This document shows, one piece after another, positions 1 through 63,506 of a DNA stretch of 64,000 nt. Source of the DNA: Phapecoctavirus DIJ07P1. The notes beneath the pieces are model-generated. The model was not told where the DNA came from. It made no database searches and saw only the letters and a list, made by a program, of their open reading frames with translations. Position 1 is the stretch's first letter. Every line of letters starts with the position of its first letter. The position numbers were made by a program, and so were the translations under genes. Location: the sequence record OZ035743.1, one strand, 5' to 3'.

Positions 1-29
1 GTTAAGATAAAGTTTAGGAGGATTTTATT

Positions 30-326
30 ATGCCTAAACTAAAACGTGGTCGTGGAAGACCAACAGCCGAAATGCAACAGATTTACGCAATGGATGCGGC
101 GCAAGCAAGTGTAAAAGAATTATTTGCAGAGCATTATTTAGAAGCTATGCGGTATATTGTTGAACTTGTTAATGATAAGGATGCAGCAAAACCTCTCCGC
201 TTCCAAGCAGCTAAAGCTATTAAAGAGCAAGTAGAAGAATGGTTAGAAGAACATTATGAAGCTATGGAAGAAGAAACCCCTGCCGTGCAGAATACAGATG
301 ACGTTCCTAAAAAGATCGTAATCTAA
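30..326 (+). CDS. small basic hypothetical protein (KRGRGRP AT-hook-like N-terminus)
   Basis: ORF preceded by AGGAGG at 16-21; followed by hairpin terminators; no recognisable family. Confidence 0.35.
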   Translation: MPKLKRGRGRPTAEMQQIYAMDAAQASVKELFAEHYLEAMRYIVELVNDKDAAKPLRFQAAKAIKEQVEEWLEEHYEAMEEETPAVQNTDDVPKKIVI

Positions 327-341
327 TACCTCTCCTCTCTT

Positions 342-410
342 GGGGCTTTGCCCCTCCTCCTTGTTATTTTTAACACCCCTCTCCGAAAGGTTAGGGGCTT
401 TTTTATTTTT
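342..410 (+). terminator. tandem hairpins plus T-tract (intrinsic terminator)
   Basis: GGGGC-TTT-GCCCC at 342-354, then CCCCT...AGGGG at 376-397 followed by CTTTTTTATTTTT. Confidence 0.5.
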
Positions 411-415
411 AATGC

Positions 416-445
416 TTGCAATTGTATATCCTTTTGTGATAAGAT
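416..445 (+). promoter_or_regulatory. sigma70-like promoter TTGCAA-N18-TAAGAT
   Basis: -35 at 416-421, -10 at 440-445, read directly. Confidence 0.4.
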
Positions 446-488
446 CAGATATGAGGAGGATAAAATATGCGCAATTTTGTAGTTAAAA

Positions 489-704
489 ATGATTTTAACC
501 GTTCTTCTTATCATAAAGATAAAAAGAATGATTACACACGGGCTTGGAACTTGGAGGAAGAACTTTATGATGACAGAGAAGACGTGGGAAGAGATCCTAG
601 CGGAGGCTCAACAAATGGAAGTGAAGAAGATAGTTAATAATGCCCCTTCTCTTCCTAAAATAAAATTTTATGAGGAAGTAGAAGATAATGAATCTAAAGA
701 CTAA
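489..704 (+). CDS. hypothetical small protein (start uncertain; an alternative 57-aa ORF at 467-640 has the better RBS)
   Basis: GAGGAGG at 453-459 sits 7 nt before ATG 467 in another frame; no TM segment so not a holin. Confidence 0.2.
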   Translation: MILTVLLIIKIKRMITHGLGTWRKNFMMTEKTWEEILAEAQQMEVKKIVNNAPSLPKIKFYEEVEDNESKD

Positions 705-1080
705 AACTGTATTAGGTTTTGTTTTAATTGTCGTTCTTATTCTTGCTGGAATGTTTGCTTATAACAAGATACATGAGTCTGGCTACAAAGATGGTGTTGC
801 CTATCAAACGCAATTGTATCAAGCAGCCCAAGCAAAAGCAAAACAAGATTTTGATGTTCTTCAAAAAAGAGCAGATGAAGAAAGAGCATTATTAAATACT
901 CAAATAAACAACTTGTCTAAAAACAATGCACAATTAAAAGCAGATTTAGAGAAGAAGAAACAAACGATCAATGAGGATACAACGAATTATGCAAAAACTA
1001 ATTCTGGCAGTATGTCTTGCTTTGCCCCTAATGATGACGGGTTGTTCATCATCAACAAAAGTTTCCCCAGTTCTTATTGA
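688..1080 (+). CDS. i-spanin (Rz-like): N-terminal TM helix plus coiled-coil
   Basis: hydrophobic stretch VLGFVLIVVLILAGMFA then Q/A/K-rich helical region; overlapped by a lipoprotein ORF in another frame. Confidence 0.55.
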   Translation: MNLKTKTVLGFVLIVVLILAGMFAYNKIHESGYKDGVAYQTQLYQAAQAKAKQDFDVLQKRADEERALLNTQINNLSKNNAQLKADLEKKKQTINEDTTNYAKTNSGSMSCFAPNDDGLFIINKSFPSSY

Positions 1081-1315
1081 TGAGTGTAAGGCTGTAGCCA
1101 TAGAAAAGGTTAAAGGTCCAGATTCGGATTTGATGGATAAAGTATCGACACCTGTGCCATACACTAAAAATCAAATTGCAAAAGGGGTTAGTAGATCTGA
1201 AGTTGTTAACAACCAAACTCAAAACAACGCTCTTTGGGAGCAAGATAGACGAAAGGTTTTAGGTTTACAAACATATATTAAAACACTGCAAGAAAAAGGT
1301 ATTATTGCTGAATAA
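971..1315 (+). CDS. o-spanin (Rz1-like outer-membrane lipoprotein)
   Basis: signal peptide with lipobox LMMTGC; starts inside the i-spanin gene in a different frame and extends past it. Confidence 0.55.
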   Translation: MRIQRIMQKLILAVCLALPLMMTGCSSSTKVSPVLIDECKAVAIEKVKGPDSDLMDKVSTPVPYTKNQIAKGVSRSEVVNNQTQNNALWEQDRRKVLGLQTYIKTLQEKGIIAE

Positions 1316-1324
1316 GGAGGGAAT

Positions 1325-3400
1325 GTGGCAAAGAAAAAGGCAGCAGGTAGTTTAGCTGGAGTAGATATTGAAGTAAAGGCTCAACCAGGTAAACAGACTC
1401 TTGCAATGGATTTAATGCCAGAAGTTATGATTTATGGTGGTGCCGCTGGATGTGTTTCTGCTGAAACGGAATATCTTACAAAAGATGGTTGGAAACAGAT
1501 TAGTGAATATTCGGGAGAGGATATTTACCAATACAACCCTAAGAATAAGCGTTTAGAATTGGTAACACCTTACTTTGTAGAATACGATTTAAATGGAGAT
1601 AATCTATACAGAATAACAAATGGTGTAGGATTGTTCCAAGAACTTAGTATGGAACACCGTTTTGTATTCTATAAGAAAAAGAAATCAAAGAAACATTTCG
1701 AGATTCTTGTAGGAGATCTTATTGCATTACAGCAAATAGGAAAACCCCTGCAAGGTTATGTAGAAAATCCATTCGGTAAACGTGTTCCTTTTAACATACC
1801 TGGTAAAAAGAGCACTTACTTAAAAATACACGAGGTTATTTCAACAGATGATAAGAAATATTGTTTTGAGACTCCAAGCAGCTATATTGTCTTTAGACGT
1901 GGCGATCACTGCTTCGTTACTGGGAATAGCGGCAAGTCTCGTCTGCTATTGCTGAAAGCTTTAAAATACGCCTACAAAGACCCTTTGTTTGGTGGAATAC
2001 TTTTCCGTAAGAACACCACTGCTCACCGTAAACCAGGTGGTCTGTTTACAGAAGCAAAACGTTTGTATCTTCCTTTACAACCGCACGTAAAAGAAAGTAC
2101 AATGGATATCATTTTTGAAGCCACTGGTGGTGGAACCCTCAAATTTGACCATTTGGAAAATGATAACGTAACAGCAGAAACAAACCATCAGGGTACACAG
2201 TATTCAATGGTAGGTTTTGATGAGTTAACCCACTTCACGCAATATGAAATGCTCTATCTTCTGGGACGTATGCGTTCAGAATCAGAAACAAGCTTCATGT
2301 TGTGCACATGTAACCCCGATGCAGATAGTTGGGTTTTGAATTGGGTATTACCTTATCTCGATGAGGGCGGTTATCCTAGAGAAGATATGTGTGGTAAACA
2401 AAAATATTTCATCATTGTTAACGATGAACCTGTTTTTGCTGACACACCTGAAGAACTGAAAGAAAAATATCCAGAAAACTGTTTCATGGAAAACCCTAAT
2501 ACAGGGGAGACAGTTGTTATTGAACCACAAACTTTCGTATTTATCGGTGGGACAATATTTGATAACCCAGAATTGATTAGGCTTAACCCTAATTATTTAG
2601 CACAGCTTAAATCACAAACAGCAATCAAAAGAGCACAACTCTTGGACGGCTGTTGGTTTGCACGTATACAGAAAGAGTCTTTCTTCCAACGTGAATGGTT
2701 GCATAAGATATCTTATAAAGATGTTCCTAATAATCTTAAACTAATGCGAGCATGGGATAAAGCTGTTTCAGTTCCTACAGAAACTTATCGTTATCCAGAC
2801 TATACAACATCTGTCAAAATGGGTAAAGACCAAGATGGTAATATCTACATCTTTGGTGACTATGATTATGATGCTGTGGATGAGAAAAGTAAAATTTTCG
2901 GAAGGTTTCGAAGATTACCTGGGGAAAGGGATAACCTGATTCTAAATCAATGTAAGATTGATGGACCAGAAGTTACAGTAGTTCTTCCTAAAGACCCATC
3001 TGGTGCTGGGACAATAGAATATACAGAGTCTGCAAAGAAACTTATTCTAGAGGGTTTTGTTGTTAAACCAGATGCTATGCCAGGCAACAAGAAAAAGCTT
3101 CAGCGTTTTATGCCTTTTAGTAGTGCGTGTCAAAACGGTTTTGTTTATATTGTTGAAGATTCTTTCCCTAATGTGGAAACTTTAACCCACTTTTATAAAG
3201 AATTGGAATCTTTCAATGGTGAAAGATCTACAGCCACTATTAAAGATGACATTCCCGATGCTGCTGCTTCTTGTTTCAATACTCTGTCAAAAGAGAATAC
3301 TTTCAAAGCAGTAGCTATCCCTGCAACAACAAATGCTCCTACAGGATACAGTAGAATGAACAGCGGATTTCACCAACCGTATAGTGTCCGTAAAAGATAA
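1325..3400 (+). CDS. terL: terminase large subunit, intein-containing
   Basis: GTG start after AAGGAGG; split P-loop GGAAG/SGKS, Walker B VGFDELTHF, LCTCNPD motif, C-terminal nuclease-sized region. Confidence 0.85.
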   Translation: MAKKKAAGSLAGVDIEVKAQPGKQTLAMDLMPEVMIYGGAAGCVSAETEYLTKDGWKQISEYSGEDIYQYNPKNKRLELVTPYFVEYDLNGDNLYRITNGVGLFQELSMEHRFVFYKKKKSKKHFEILVGDLIALQQIGKPLQGYVENPFGKRVPFNIPGKKSTYLKIHEVISTDDKKYCFETPSSYIVFRRGDHCFVTGNSGKSRLLLLKALKYAYKDPLFGGILFRKNTTAHRKPGGLFTEAKRLYLPLQPHVKESTMDIIFEATGGGTLKFDHLENDNVTAETNHQGTQYSMVGFDELTHFTQYEMLYLLGRMRSESETSFMLCTCNPDADSWVLNWVLPYLDEGGYPREDMCGKQKYFIIVNDEPVFADTPEELKEKYPENCFMENPNTGETVVIEPQTFVFIGGTIFDNPELIRLNPNYLAQLKSQTAIKRAQLLDGCWFARIQKESFFQREWLHKISYKDVPNNLKLMRAWDKAVSVPTETYRYPDYTTSVKMGKDQDGNIYIFGDYDYDAVDEKSKIFGRFRRLPGERDNLILNQCKIDGPEVTVVLPKDPSGAGTIEYTESAKKLILEGFVVKPDAMPGNKKKLQRFMPFSSACQNGFVYIVEDSFPNVETLTHFYKELESFNGERSTATIKDDIPDAAASCFNTLSKENTFKAVAIPATTNAPTGYSRMNSGFHQPYSVRKR
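1451..1927 (+). other. mini-intein (159 aa) inside the terminase Walker A motif
   Basis: starts Cys43 with block-A-like CVSAETEYLTKDGWKQI, SMEH block-B-like, ends ...FVTGN followed by Ser; excision restores GGAAGSGKS. Confidence 0.7.
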
Positions 3401-3403
3401 TTG

Positions 3404-3432
3404 TTGACAAAAGTCACTTTAAAGTGTATTAT
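3404..3432 (+). promoter_or_regulatory. sigma70-like promoter TTGACA-N17-TATTAT
   Basis: -35 at 3404-3409, -10 at 3427-3432, upstream of portal gene. Confidence 0.5.
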
Positions 3433-3501
3433 AACTAGATAGGTGAGGTTGTATATAATACAGCCTTGCCTTAACGATTTTATACCTGACTGGAGGAACA
3501 A

Positions 3502-5067
3502 GTGTCAACAGGAAAAAGAACGTACACTAAAAAGTCAGAATACTGGGACAAAGGTGCTGCAAATAAAGCTGCTCTCTCTCCAACAAAAGAGGCAGAGAAA
3601 GAGAAAACGTTACTCCTGTCACCTGAAATAGGAACGATCGGATTAAACTCAATCAAAGCATTTACGAATTTCATGCAACCTTATGAGACTCGTTTCCCAG
3701 AATGTATTCGCACTTTTAAAGAGATGGGTGAAGACCCTGATGTAGCTACTGCTCTTGACGCTACATATATCTTTGTAGATAGAGCATTCTTTGATTTCAA
3801 GATAAAATACAATGTAAACTCGGCAAAGTCAAGAAAAGCTGCTAAGTTTATTGATTACATGTTACGCAATATGCAAGCCCCTCTACGTCAATATGTTAGA
3901 TCACTTTTGACATATAAGCAATATGGTTTTGCATTCGCAGAGAAAGTTTATGAGTTGGATGAAGATCCTAAAAGTCCTTACTTTGGGTATTGGCGATTGA
4001 CCAAACTGGCTTTTAGACCACAAGACACTCTTCACATGGCTCAACCTTTTACATATTCGGCAGACGGACGTTCTATTCTATCTGTTAACCAGAATATCAC
4101 CAATACAATGTTAGCTCCAGGTAATACAACTTTAGAAACTGGTATTAAAGAAATTCCTTTCAGTAAAGTTTTATTTGTTGGTAGTAACATTACAGAGAAT
4201 AACCCACTAGGAGTTAGTCCGCTTTTAGCTGTATATCGTAGCTGGCGTGAAAAATCTCTTATTCAGGAATTTGAGGTTATTGGGGTATCTAAAGATTTAG
4301 GCGGTATGCCAGTTCTTAAGGTTCCAAGTGACATTCTAAACAGGGCATCTTTAGATCCTGCTGGGGATGAAGCACAATCTCTTCGAGTTCTCCAAGCCAA
4401 CATCGCTAACCTGCACTCTGGTGAGCAAGCCTACATGGTATTGCCTTCAGACGTTTATGAAGGCACAGTGATGCGTCAATACGATCTTGTATTCCAAGGT
4501 GTTGATGGCACGGGTAAACAGTTTGACACTCAAGCACTAATCAAACAACGCAAGCTAGATATTTATAACCGCTTTGGTGCGGGTGTGTTGATTATGGGTG
4601 ATGGTGATGCAGGAAGTTTTGCGCTTTCTGACAACAAACAAACACTATTGTCTCATTTTATTGAGCGAGATGTAGATATTGTTGTAGAAGCTATAAACTC
4701 TCAACTGATCCCTCAAACACTACGACTAAACAATATCTTCCTTTCTGATGAAGATATGCCTAAGTTTGTCAGTGGTGAAATGGGTGATCCTGATATTGAA
4801 GTAAATGCTAAAGCTATTCAGCAGTTGGTAGCCTCTGGTGCAATACCTTTAACCCCAGAAGTTATTAACGAGTTCCTTGAAAAAATTGGTTTTGAATATC
4901 GTATCCCTGACGATATTGTTGCCAATAAAGAGAAATTCTTTGAATTCATGGATAACTATATGCCTGACAAAACTTCACGATCAGGAGATGGTTTAGCTAC
5001 AGCGGGAACTGGAACGTCTGATACTGTTTCTGCTTTAGATCCTTCAGCACAAAACCTGTCGAATTAA
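3502..5067 (+). CDS. portal protein
   Basis: 521 aa, directly downstream of terminase; GTG start after GGAGG; size and position typical. Confidence 0.55.
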   Translation: MSTGKRTYTKKSEYWDKGAANKAALSPTKEAEKEKTLLLSPEIGTIGLNSIKAFTNFMQPYETRFPECIRTFKEMGEDPDVATALDATYIFVDRAFFDFKIKYNVNSAKSRKAAKFIDYMLRNMQAPLRQYVRSLLTYKQYGFAFAEKVYELDEDPKSPYFGYWRLTKLAFRPQDTLHMAQPFTYSADGRSILSVNQNITNTMLAPGNTTLETGIKEIPFSKVLFVGSNITENNPLGVSPLLAVYRSWREKSLIQEFEVIGVSKDLGGMPVLKVPSDILNRASLDPAGDEAQSLRVLQANIANLHSGEQAYMVLPSDVYEGTVMRQYDLVFQGVDGTGKQFDTQALIKQRKLDIYNRFGAGVLIMGDGDAGSFALSDNKQTLLSHFIERDVDIVVEAINSQLIPQTLRLNNIFLSDEDMPKFVSGEMGDPDIEVNAKAIQQLVASGAIPLTPEVINEFLEKIGFEYRIPDDIVANKEKFFEFMDNYMPDKTSRSGDGLATAGTGTSDTVSALDPSAQNLSN

Positions 5068-48372: not shown

Positions 48373-48894
48373 TTAACTCCCCTTTGGTAGATAGAAACCA
48401 TGCACTTTATCTCGATAAACAAGACGCATATCACGCTCCCAGTGTGTCTTTATATTCCGCTTCTTGAAGTATAGAGCACCTTTAGTAACATCTAAAACAG
48501 ACCGCAATTCAGGAAAATGTTTCTCTAAATAAAGTAAACGCTCCGCTATTGCTTTTGCTTCCTGCCACTTATCTTTCTCTGTTACGTTAAAAGTTTTCGC
48601 ATATGAGAATTGCCCTTTCTGGAACAAGACTCCTCTGACTGTGTTAGGAAAGTAGGCATCATTTCTTCTATTGATTACCACATTCCCAACGGCATTCATT
48701 CCTTTTTTACCCAGACCGCGACCTTCTGCGTAAATTGCACAAGCTAATAGAATTTTATCATTATATTGTTTTGTACATTTGTGAACTACTTTAGCGGTTT
48801 TTACGTTTGCAGCTTCGGCTTTCGCCACAACAGGTGTAAATGTAAAAGCAGTTAAGGATAGTAACGCAACTGTTACAAAGTTTTTTATCAGCAA
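48373..48894 (-). CDS. secreted SleB/CwlJ-like cell wall hydrolase (candidate endolysin)
   Basis: Sec signal peptide ending AKAEA; CAIYAEGRG...GMNAVGNVVINR matches the Hydrolase_2 signature. Confidence 0.55.
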   Translation of the reverse strand: MLIKNFVTVALLSLTAFTFTPVVAKAEAANVKTAKVVHKCTKQYNDKILLACAIYAEGRGLGKKGMNAVGNVVINRRNDAYFPNTVRGVLFQKGQFSYAKTFNVTEKDKWQEAKAIAERLLYLEKHFPELRSVLDVTKGALYFKKRNIKTHWERDMRLVYRDKVHGFYLPKGS

Positions 48895-54610: not shown

Positions 54611-55048
54611 TTAACGTCGCTTGCTACGAGATGAACTCTTTTTACTTAAAGGGCTATTGTAAGATTTACGAGTTGTATAGCTACTATTTGTTTTAAAAGT
54701 TTGTCTCGGCTTTTCATAAGTTTTTATCTCTTGTTTAGGCTTACTATAAAAATTAGTTTTCGGTTTAGGTGTATTATAATGTTTATTAATAATCGTTCTG
54801 TTATCGTTATAATCCCCACTGCTACGATTACTACCGCCACTCATCATATGCCCTAACAACATACCTGTAGCAAACTCACCAACACCGTTACTACTAGAAC
54901 CGCCACCATTGTTGATAATAGTTGTATCTCCGTCAGATCCTTGTTGAGCGTATTGTTGAGGAGGTTGTTGGTATTGTGCAGGATTTGTTTCATCCTCGCA
55001 AGCTGTTAAAAAGATACAACCAATTAAAATCAGGGCTAGTTTTTTCAT
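54611..55048 (-). CDS. lipoprotein (start at internal Met)
   Basis: MKKLALILIGCIFLTAC lipobox; Q/G-rich middle, basic C-terminus. Confidence 0.45.
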   Translation of the reverse strand: MKKLALILIGCIFLTACEDETNPAQYQQPPQQYAQQGSDGDTTIINNGGGSSSNGVGEFATGMLLGHMMSGGSNRSSGDYNDNRTIINKHYNTPKPKTNFYSKPKQEIKTYEKPRQTFKTNSSYTTRKSYNSPLSKKSSSRSKRR

Positions 55049-55231
55049 ATTTGCTTTCCTCGTTTTGGCTATTAATACATCTGTGTTTGAAATCTCCAGA
55101 GAAGCAATAAAGTTGCTCTCCATCTCGGTATAAACTCACTTTACTGCCGTTGATTACGCTTGTCAATACAAAAATTACAACAAACAACCCTATTGCAAAA
55201 CAAATATTTTCAAACACAACCAACAAGTATT

Positions 55232-56680: not shown

Positions 56681-56902
56681 TTATTTTGTTGAATGAGAGG
56701 AAAAGATTCCTCGTAATACCGCCAGAATAAACGAAACACAAACCACGGTCCAGAAGGTTACTGGGACAGTGATATCTGCATGACCCATAACTTCAGCAAC
56801 ATAGTTGTAAGCCAGCAACAGTAACCAAGCTGGAATCAAACTAAGCATAAAAGCAATAACAAAAAAGCTTACCACTGCAACAATACCTGCAAAAACACCC
56901 AT
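56681..56902 (-). CDS. small multi-TM membrane protein
   Basis: 73 aa, two to three hydrophobic segments. Confidence 0.3.
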   Translation of the reverse strand: MGVFAGIVAVVSFFVIAFMLSLIPAWLLLLAYNYVAEVMGHADITVPVTFWTVVCVSFILAVLRGIFSSHSTK

Positions 56903-61987: not shown

Positions 61988-62054
61988 TATTAATCCTTAT
62001 TTTGTGAGTAGAACTATTATTCTACCTCTTCCAACCGAAAAAAGCTTTGAGGGA

Positions 62055-62082
62055 AATCAAAAAAGGCGCAAAGTGCGCCTTT
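62055..62082 (-). terminator. intrinsic terminator (minus strand)
   Basis: AGGCGCA-CTT-TGCGCCT followed by TTTTTTGATTT on minus strand. Confidence 0.55.
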
Positions 62083-62090
62083 AAGTTTTA

Positions 62091-63506
62091 TCATTTGGAG
62101 AGGAATTGTCTTCCCATGATCTTACCGTTCTTCACAGCGGTCCCATCGTGTCCATTGTAATCCCAGGTTCCATCGATATTACGCAAGAAGCTATCACGAA
62201 CAGTATAGGCTTTACCGTTCTCTACTTTACTTTCTTCCACAATGATTGCCATAACAAGCTTATTTTCAATTTCGGTAGTAACCGATTCTTTGATACCCTC
62301 TGTAACTTCACGATCATATTGGATATAAACTCGCTCCTCGGTTACTTGCACGTCTACCACATTTTTAAATGTGTAGGTCTGTTGCGTAGTGTAGAGGACA
62401 CGAACGACACTCTTCTTACCTACCGGAGGCTTCTTACGAGGCTTACGGTAACGTGGTTTAGGGTTGTTAGTTGGAAGCCAACCAACAATATCCCGATCAT
62501 ATCCAACATGACCCCAAGTGAAATGCGTAGCCGATCCACTATCCGTAGTTCCGTCACGAAAGAGAACTTCTACGTGACCACCACAAGGGCGGTGTCCACC
62601 ATTATTATAGTTGTATTTTGCCGTGCGCGGGAGAATGAAGTATTCTTTAATCGCCCACTCTTCCAGATTGTCGATATTCCAAGTGAATACTGTTCCCTTA
62701 GCAACATCTGTTTGACCATTGTTGAAGCGAACCTGCACGAAATCTTCTGAAGGCATAACACCTGTGTTCGGCAGATATTCAAATGCAGTATCTTCCGCTA
62801 CAAACTGTTCTTCCTCTTGCTCCTCAATACTTGGCACAGGCGCAGCTTCATCGTATTTCGCAGCAAACATATTTTTAAATTCTTGAGCCGTGACTTCTAC
62901 AAGGCCGCGATCACCAGTAGCAGCAGAGTGTGGGCGTGGTAAATCCCCAACTTCAATATGCATTGCATCTAAGCCTGCTTGACGATCAAAGAAGATAACC
63001 TTGCGGAATTGTTTATCTTTATATTGTGGCAGTTCATACATACTTGGATCGATTGTCTTCAAACGTTCAGCATCTTCTGGCTTCCAGAAGCTTTTACCTG
63101 TTGCAAATCTAAAGTCTACCAGTAGTTTAACAACATCTCCTAATGATAAACTATCTGCATCTACGAAAACGTCTTCGATTCCCAATAACCCTGATTTCTT
63201 AAGAATCAGATCTAACATGTAACCTCCTGTGGTTTGTTCTGCATCTGGATAACGATCAACACTGGTGCTGGTTACACCGTTTATTTCACCAGTGGAGGCA
63301 TTGTAGGAAATATATGGGAAGGTCATATCGTTCATTGCAAAATCACCTGAACAGGTTGGATCATCTTCTCCCTCCCAACCATACACCTTCACAATACCTT
63401 CACACAATTTGTCATACACACCAGCGCGACGTGCTGCTTCAGCAACTTCCTGTTTACGGGCAAATTTATTAATCATGATTCCTCCTGTTAATTGCCATAG
63501 ATGCAC
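62091..63506 (-). CDS. hypothetical protein (471 aa)
   Basis: ORF track; no motif recognised. Confidence 0.3.
   Translation of the reverse strand: MHLWQLTGGIMINKFARKQEVAEAARRAGVYDKLCEGIVKVYGWEGEDDPTCSGDFAMNDMTFPYISYNASTGEINGVTSTSVDRYPDAEQTTGGYMLDLILKKSGLLGIEDVFVDADSLSLGDVVKLLVDFRFATGKSFWKPEDAERLKTIDPSMYELPQYKDKQFRKVIFFDRQAGLDAMHIEVGDLPRPHSAATGDRGLVEVTAQEFKNMFAAKYDEAAPVPSIEEQEEEQFVAEDTAFEYLPNTGVMPSEDFVQVRFNNGQTDVAKGTVFTWNIDNLEEWAIKEYFILPRTAKYNYNNGGHRPCGGHVEVLFRDGTTDSGSATHFTWGHVGYDRDIVGWLPTNNPKPRYRKPRKKPPVGKKSVVRVLYTTQQTYTFKNVVDVQVTEERVYIQYDREVTEGIKESVTTEIENKLVMAIIVEESKVENGKAYTVRDSFLRNIDGTWDYNGHDGTAVKNGKIMGRQFLSK

Follow-up and report, generated by a model that had tools for sequence, protein, structure and literature searches.

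Two overlapping genes on the plus strand of Phapecoctavirus DIJ07P1, at positions 688–1080 and 989–1315, very probably code for a two-component spanin, one subunit each, in this phAPEC8-like (Phapecoctavirus) E. coli myophage. All positions refer to the window, by which we mean the whole 64,000-nucleotide stretch of sequence record OZ035743.1 that was analyzed. Over its first 4 kb the window is 99.5% identical to Escherichia phage phAPEC8_ev052 and at least 99% identical to many further Phapecoctavirus genomes (Stephanstirmvirinae). The spanin pair is already known, as the exact pair is present in a published catalogue: the phAPEC8 (NC_020079.1) pair is found in the supplementary tables of SpaninDB (Kongari et al. 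2018, PMC6139136). There the i-spanin (phAPEC8_00145/gp121) is described as a protein of 130 aa with one transmembrane domain (TMD) and a predicted coiled coil at residues 42–106, and the o-spanin (phAPEC8_00146) as a protein of 114 aa with the signal MRIQRIMQKLILAVCLALPLMMTG, the lipobox MMTG, a mature chain of 90 aa, and one periplasmic cysteine (PMC6139136). The catalogued layout is ‘ovl’, with genes at 62013–62406 and 62296–62641, a 110-nt overlap in the +1 frame, and assignment to family ‘phi92’ (PMC6139136). Compared with these phAPEC8 entries, the window has a 100% identical o-spanin and an i-spanin with 3 residue differences. The pair also comes up in later genome papers on relatives (PMC12210895, PMC13096147).

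The i-spanin gene (688–1080, plus strand) encodes 130 aa comprising an N-terminal membrane helix, a predicted long periplasmic helix, and a tail with a conserved Cys111. It is preceded by a Shine-Dalgarno sequence, GAGGA, read from the sequence at 672–676 (plus strand), 11 nt 5′ of ATG 688. The transmembrane helix proposed in the first-pass annotation is present as one strong hydrophobic segment, TVLGFVLIVVLILAGMFAY, encoded at 706–762 (plus strand) and covering residues 7–25, which has a Kyte-Doolittle 19-aa mean of 2.59 and is the only segment of the protein above 1.6. With Lys4 and Lys6 ahead of this segment, the positive-inside rule would give the protein a type II topology (N-in, C-out). 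A single-sequence AlphaFold2 model shows an uninterrupted helix over residues 3–104, with pLDDT values of 83–97 across residues 31–100, followed by a low-confidence tail (residues 105–130) that holds the sole cysteine, C111; residues 40–106 contain neither proline nor glycine. The same annotation had called the protein a coiled coil, and this part of the description did not emerge from our own crude heptad-occupancy test, in which the observed value of 0.75 was not significantly different from the shuffle mean of 0.69 (48% of shuffles reached the observed value). The coiled-coil label is instead based on the helix model together with the published prediction for residues 42–106 (PMC6139136, Additional file 4). 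In addition, the protein matches PHROG 4297 ‘Rz-like spanin’ (2.6e-35; residues 1–128 on profile positions 7–129 of 130), and its homologue in near-identical phages is annotated as ‘Rz spanin’ or ‘Rz-like spanin’.

The second open reading frame was first delimited as 971–1315 (plus strand, 114 aa), and it exists in this form in the +1 frame relative to 688–1080, beginning inside the first gene and ending 235 nt past its stop at 1080. Counted from ATG 971 the overlap is 110 nt, and counted from ATG 989, which is the conserved start adopted here, it is 92 nt and the protein is 108 aa long, beginning with MQKLILAVCLALPLMMTG followed by CSSS. The predicted lipoprotein signal was recovered as a match to the PROSITE-type prokaryotic lipoprotein pattern, CLALPLMMTGC, in which the lipobox M-M-T-G and the Cys expected to be lipidated (codon 1043–1045) occupy 1031–1045 (plus strand). 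This cysteine is Cys25 counted from 971 and Cys19 counted from 989, and the n-region carries Lys/Arg. Among the ATG-started open reading frames of 40–220 aa in the window, 971–1315 alone passed the lipobox test. The signal peptide is the only hydrophobic segment of the protein, which does not have the combination of N-terminal lipobox and C-terminal TMD that characterizes a unimolecular spanin of the T1 gp11 type. At residue +2 the window has Ser and its relatives have Ser, Ala, or Thr, never Asp. In E. coli lipoproteins, Asp at +2 is the signal for Lol avoidance; as it is not found here, the protein is expected to be sorted to the outer membrane by Lol. A single-sequence AlphaFold2 model was poor in the N-terminal half and gave a confident C-terminal helix at residues 69–102 (pLDDT 80–88). 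The protein counted from 971 matches PHROG 1267 ‘Rz-like spanin’ (8.7e-21; residues 7–113 on profile positions 2–92 of 119).

SpaninDB requires a family member to reach 40% identity or more with each of the others across no less than 40% of the periplasmic domain, and family membership was assessed on this basis. The phi92-type Justusliebigvirus homologues are ~67% identical in the o-spanin and ~50% identical in the i-spanin, which places the window pair within the ‘phi92’ family for both subunits; in the catalogue this is a two-member family (phi92, phAPEC8) for each subunit (PMC6139136). For comparative analysis, the window was set beside four lineages, namely Justusliebigvirus EmilieFrey (with which Serratia phage KKP_3264 was grouped as the same type), Klebsiella phage phi1_175008, phiWec186, and Citrobacter phage Tr1. 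Three cysteines are invariant in these five lineages: the lipobox Cys, Cys111 of the i-spanin, and the periplasmic Cys of the o-spanin, which sits in a motif [EQ]-C-K-A. Scans of both proteins with Pfam found no family match, only sub-threshold coiled-coil noise (E up to 0.1), and scans with NCBIfam found none above cutoff; the weak Lpp-like signal-peptide match in these scans was likewise below threshold. As a result, membership in the sequence families of lambda Rz (Pfam Phage_lysis) and Rz1 (Pfam Rz1 lipoprotein) was rejected, since there was no match above the gathering score, and the pair is not related by sequence to either lambda protein. When examined by the two-component spanin criteria of Summer 2007 and Kongari 2018, the pair displayed every sequence-level feature that could be tested: a single N-terminal TMD, a helical periplasmic domain, an SPII lipobox, a non-Asp residue at +2, gene adjacency, and a periplasmic cysteine.

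The gene order in the window is a putative small terminase (30–326, a label that comes from the annotation of one depositor only), the spanin pair, and the large terminase. A probable intrinsic terminator, a hairpin with a T-run at 376–410 (plus strand), lies 5′ of the spanin/terminase transcription unit. The hairpin (376–397) was spotted by eye, and a separate RNA fold gave −12.3 kcal/mol with a z-score of −2.26; a promoter and terminator scan near the spanin genes returned nothing beyond shuffle expectation and did not list the 376–410 hairpin. Late expression of the pair is presumed from its place in the late packaging operon, directly 5′ of the large terminase gene. Pfam, NCBIfam, and PDB sequence searches gave no match for an intein in the large terminase, of which residues 43–201 would be the part spliced out.

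The first-pass annotation had placed the cell wall hydrolase about 48 kb from the pair and described the lysis genes as scattered, and both statements agree with what we found, in that the spanin genes lie beside the terminase gene and the endolysin gene lies 47–48 kb away at 48373–48894 (minus strand). This gene encodes a SleB-like cell wall hydrolase (Pfam Hydrolase_2, 1.4e-17; PHROG 938 endolysin, 9e-19; NCBIfam spore_SleB, 5.4e-14, under cutoff), is annotated as endolysin in ESCO13, and is surrounded by replication and glycosyltransferase genes. Its product starts with a hydrophobic signal-like segment, MLIKNFVTVALLSLTAFTFTPVVAKA followed by EA, so that the endolysin is probably exported or membrane-tethered. 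A holin was sought by transmembrane-segment scanning and with PHROGs, which turned up nothing beyond proteins of unknown function; no holin was found beside the spanin or endolysin genes, and no transmembrane protein adjoins the endolysin. A 73-aa protein with two transmembrane segments at 56681–56902 (minus strand), which belongs to a PHROG of unknown function, is a possible candidate holin. The BME3 paper on relatives gives the same picture of scattered lysis genes (PMC12210895), and the lysis genes of T4 are scattered as well (PMC6139136).

We considered whether the lipoprotein might have another role, such as superinfection exclusion or receptor masking in the manner of T5 Llp, with the transmembrane protein unrelated to it and the true disruptor elsewhere or absent. 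The position of the pair in a packaging module and not in a lysis cassette lends some weight to this reading, and so do the size and composition of the o-spanin, as a mature chain of ~90 aa is long for an o-spanin and proline is not abundant in the protein (5 of 114 aa). We counted these last two points against the spanin assignment, together with the missing Pfam and NCBIfam matches, the non-significant heptad test, and the fact that no holin was found beside the genes; the catalogue itself remarks ‘Too long?’ on the phi92 homologue (PMC6139136). Spanin function is, moreover, predicted only, and the papers searched contained no report, for the phi92/phAPEC8 spanin family, of lambda RzamRz1am complementation or of a requirement in outer-membrane disruption. 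Lipoproteins are also not confined to this locus, as at least one further lipobox-bearing open reading frame is present in the window (54611–55123, minus strand, from an internal start) and a ‘lipoprotein’ is annotated near the tail fibre genes in ESCO13. However, a long-helix type II membrane protein paired with an overlapping, +1-frame gene for an outer-membrane lipoprotein is the defining signature of spanins, and the two proteins co-occur and co-evolve across the subfamily. Searches recovered the i-spanin from 133 phage records and the o-spanin from 135; both sets came from the same organisms, with 107 Escherichia records per search, and in 10 of 10 records inspected the two open reading frames were adjacent and directly 5′ of the large terminase gene. 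The single conserved periplasmic cysteine in each subunit fits the rule that at least one such cysteine for homotypic intermolecular disulfides is present in 507 of 528 systems (PMC6139136). The C-terminal helix of the o-spanin also carries a motif common to rV5-family o-spanins, and the late-operon position suits lysis and not early exclusion. We therefore regard a non-spanin role as improbable and the spanin assignment as by far the better reading.

The start of the o-spanin gene had initially been put at 971, and comparison across relatives moves it to ATG 989 (MQKLILAV...), as Met989 and the signal peptide are kept in all five diverged lineages. The o-frame opens merely 1–6 codons 5′ of the conserved Met in EmilieFrey/KKP_3264, phiWec186, and Tr1, and 17 codons 5′ of it in phi1_175008; the short opening in three of these four relatives identifies ATG 989 of the window, and not ATG 971, as the conserved start. 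A Shine-Dalgarno sequence, GAGGA (TGAGGA in full), was read from the sequence at 973–977 (plus strand), and its distance from ATG 989 is 11 nt, identical to the spacing seen at ATG 688 of the i-spanin gene. The PHROG 1267 alignment also starts at Met989. The phAPEC8 entry in SpaninDB begins at the equivalent of 971, a start with no marked Shine-Dalgarno sequence (PMC6139136), whereas our placement aligns the initial Met with the phi92 start. The mature lipoprotein is unchanged whichever of these two codons is used.

Starts further 3′ would have a larger consequence, since a second gene beginning at ATG 1031 or 1034, or at ~1100, would encode a soluble protein of unknown function with no signal peptide rather than an o-spanin. 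Public annotations offer precedents for this, with starts at 1031 (MMTGC) in EF1-1, 1034 (MTGC) in ZCKP1, and ~1100 in ESCO13; in the BASEL phage EmilieFrey the gene is also annotated from the MMTGC start, and in phAPEC8_ev052 and 3A1_SA_NWU it is absent. Against this, the 14–15 codons 5′ of 1031/1034 are open in all five lineages and encode a conserved M-[QR]-K and a hydrophobic signal peptide leading to the lipobox, in addition to the ribosome-binding and profile evidence for Met989 given above. In Kongari et al. 2018 (PMC6139136), 260 of 528 genomes had a missing or mis-started o-spanin gene, and truncated o-spanin annotations are therefore an expected gene-caller artefact. A soluble, signal-less product is accordingly very improbable, and the gene is best read as encoding the full o-spanin from ATG 989. 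In most of the Phapecoctavirus and Justusliebigvirus records that we inspected, the o-spanin is either left out or begun at MMTGC or 3′ of it, with loss of the signal peptide; the conserved start and the dual-coding evidence described below could be used to correct them, and the value of this result is in annotation.

Both frames show the marks of coding sequence. The +1 frame is open in every compared lineage, with an overlap of 92–95 nt, and in all five lineages it encodes M-[QR]-K, a hydrophobic stretch, and then L-[MV]-[MI]-T-G-C-[SAT]-S-S. In the window, the dual-coding overlap (989–1080, plus strand) specifies the C-terminal tail of the i-spanin in frame 0 and the signal peptide and lipobox of the o-spanin in frame +1. 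Pairwise divergence at codon positions 1/2/3 of the i-spanin frame is 0.46/0.33/0.61 outside the overlap and 0.26/0.19/0.17 inside it; the corresponding values for the o-spanin frame are 0.34/0.20/0.57 and 0.15/0.13/0.26. Wobble positions lose their freedom to vary only within the stretch that is read in both frames, a signature expected of two real genes. In both proteins, conservation is highest in the overlap region: outside it, 60% of i-spanin residues differ among the five lineages, while the conserved i-spanin tail reads Y-A-K-T-x2-G-x-[ML]-S-C-F-x-P-x-D-x-G-L-x-I-[IL]-N-x-S. This runs opposite to the published generalization that i-spanin C-termini diverge within the overlap (Kongari et al., PMC6139136). 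The o-spanin keeps 65–73% protein identity in diverged genera.

That 971–1315 is a chance open frame, with the 235 nt past the i-spanin stop non-coding, has nothing in its favour beyond the absence of the gene from some annotations and is effectively refuted, its likelihood being close to nil, by the comparative conservation, the codon-position divergence typical of a gene, the PHROG 1267 match, and the length of the open run itself, which at 121 codons (950–1315) exceeds all of the 3296 same-strand alternative-frame runs inside the long open reading frames of the window (maximum 105 codons, 99th percentile 56) and which by base composition (39% GC, stop probability 0.064 per codon) has a chance of ~5e-4 for at least 115 open codons. 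A single, frameshifted i-spanin spanning 688–1315 was also considered, as the helical C-terminus of the second reading frame resembled the C-terminus of lambda Rz; it was rejected, since all lineages retain the two stops and the two frames, and the second reading frame has its own conserved lipobox and signal peptide. In total, the gene structure, the targeting signals, the helix content, the conservation of both frames, and the family membership of the spanin pair are supported by the sequence analysis itself.

Localisation, complex formation, disulfides, and membrane disruption are assigned to this pair by analogy with the lambda and T4 paradigms (PMC6139136). By these paradigms, the N-terminal helix would anchor the i-spanin in the inner membrane, leaving the N-terminus in the cytoplasm, and the helix of ~75 residues and the conserved Cys-bearing tail would reach into the periplasm. 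The o-spanin would be exported, cleaved, and lipidated at Cys19 through the lipoprotein pathway and, with Ser at +2, delivered to the outer membrane, in its inner leaflet. Both subunits would then join across the periplasm, probably as homodimers stabilized by homotypic disulfides through the one conserved periplasmic cysteine of each. The elements in contact may be the conserved i-spanin tail and the C-terminal helix of the o-spanin, which is a guess from conservation. Until the SleB-like endolysin degrades the wall, the complex would be caged by peptidoglycan; the outer membrane would subsequently be disrupted by fusion of the inner and outer membranes, the model proposed for lambda, thereby completing lysis.

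Comparison with characterized systems clarifies the architecture of the pair. Its description in the first-pass annotation as the classic overlapped layout of Rz/Rz1 is correct as to the overlap, but Rz/Rz1 is not an example of that class, as the lambda genes are embedded and the named paradigm of overlapped genes is P2 LysB/LysC (PMC6139136). Among 528 two-component systems, the overlapped class is the commonest with 228, followed by 182 embedded and 118 separated (PMC6139136). Like P2 LysB/LysC, the window pair has an o-spanin gene that begins within the i-spanin gene, is read in the +1 frame, and continues past the i-spanin stop, an i-spanin with an N-terminal TMD, and an o-spanin predicted to be an outer-membrane lipoprotein; one record names the i-spanin homologue ‘LysB family lysis regulatory protein’. 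The spanin genes of P2 are part of a lysis cassette with the holin and endolysin, whereas the pair described here lies 5′ of the terminase gene.

The likeness to lambda Rz/Rz1 would lie in functional class, predicted topology, and periplasmic cysteines available for homotypic disulfides. Rz1 lies wholly within Rz, whereas the o-spanin of the window reaches its stop at 1315, 235 nt past 1080. The i-spanin consists of a single long helix with a conserved, unstructured tail, in contrast to the two coiled-coil segments of the lambda protein. The mature o-spanin of lambda is proline-rich and only 40 aa long, while that of the window is ~90 aa and has a C-terminal helix. T4 PseT.3/PseT.2 resembles the window pair in having a larger o-spanin with a predicted C-terminal helix and genes apart from the holin and endolysin (PMC6139136, Fig. 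8). The T4 genes are, however, ‘separated’ and those of T7 (gp18.5/gp18.7) ‘embedded’, and the window pair is overlapped. In T7, the spanin genes are found between the small and large terminase genes, with the lysozyme distant. The window resembles T7 in this arrangement, with its spanin genes between the putative small terminase and the large terminase and the hydrolase far away. The pair also provides a clean example of lysis genes dispersed over a 150-kb myophage genome.

Finally, the o-spanin shares with those of the rV5 family (Vequintavirinae) a C-terminal helix motif, NN-x5-DR-x-K-x3-LQ-x-YI-x-TL, at 45% identity over 29 aa (pairwise E 3e-5), and collinear alignment of the i-spanins gives 24% identity (pairwise E 0.006). 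In SpaninDB the rV5 spanins form a different family of ‘separated’ architecture, their genes overlapping by 4 nt (PMC6139136). Such similarity is not strong enough to establish that the proteins are homologous over their whole length. We tentatively suggest, as a possibility we rate below even, that the phi92/phAPEC8 spanins are distant homologues of the rV5-family spanins and that the shared amphipathic helix of the o-spanin and tail of the i-spanin form the periplasmic junction. If this homology is true, it would give one more family that bridges two gene architectures, and it would point to the contact surface between i-spanin and o-spanin.

The o-spanin gene (989-1315, + strand), which overlaps the i-spanin gene (688-1080, + strand), was checked in 10 GenBank/RefSeq records, all of them public matches to window positions 640-1330. 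Eight of these either lack it or annotate it with a truncated start that loses the signal peptide, and RefSeq and the curated BASEL set were among those affected. Upstream of the spanin genes, directly 3' of ORF 30-326 (a putative small terminase gene), a hairpin on the + strand at 376-410 (CCCCUCUCC-GAAA-GGUUAGGGG) is followed by a T-run and folds at -12.3 kcal/mol with a z-score of -2.26. The terminator scan did not list this hairpin. This element probably acts as an intrinsic terminator, which would make the spanin and terminase genes the start of a new transcription unit.

In the large terminase (gene 1325-3400), residues 43-201 (1451-1927, + strand) form an insert that reads like a candidate mini-intein placed in the Walker A loop. 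With the insert removed, the joined terminase flanks give IYGGAAG|SGKS, while the insert itself starts at its N-terminus with CVSAETEYLTKDG, contains an SMEH block, and ends in DHCFVTGN|S. Sequence searches of Pfam, NCBIfam, and PDB with the large terminase yielded no intein match, and the sole outside match was to a PHROG (phage protein family) of PhoH-like ATPases, in two separated stretches. The insert seems to be present in all relatives. In phage nepoznato, the large terminase gene is split by an HNH homing endonuclease. The host labels of several records look doubtful from their sequences: “Campylobacter phage” B15 is 99.4% identical to window positions 1-4000, the “Campylobacter phage” A150, A110a, and A145 records carry a Justusliebigvirus-type locus of E. 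coli phages, and “Acinetobacter phage vB_AbaM_ABPW7” shares 98.5% identity with Phapecoctavirus genomes of E. coli phages.

Among the other lysis genes, the SleB-like endolysin (48373-48894, - strand) has a signal-like hydrophobic segment with an AKA|E motif at its N-terminus, which suggests an exported or signal-anchor-release type. No holin gene was found adjoining it. A 73-aa ORF (56681-56902, - strand), about 8 kb away from the endolysin, is a candidate holin; it has two strong hydrophobic segments in a class II holin-like topology and falls in the function-unknown family PHROG 16065. A second lipobox-bearing ORF (54611-55123, - strand; internal start, MKKLALILIGCIFLTAC...) matches PHROGs without known function, and in the record of the relative ESCO13 a “lipoprotein” is annotated at roughly 28.5 kb, adjoining the tail-fibre genes.

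Finally, the o-spanin shares a C-terminal helix motif, NN-x5-DR-x-K-x3-LQ-x-YI-x-TL (window 1220-1300, + strand), with the o-spanin of the rV5 family, whose spanin genes have a separated architecture. Pairwise comparison of these C-termini gave 45% identity over 29 aa (E 3e-5), and the i-spanins of the two groups align collinearly but weakly. These alignments indicate that the overlapped spanins described here and the separated rV5 family may be remote homologues.
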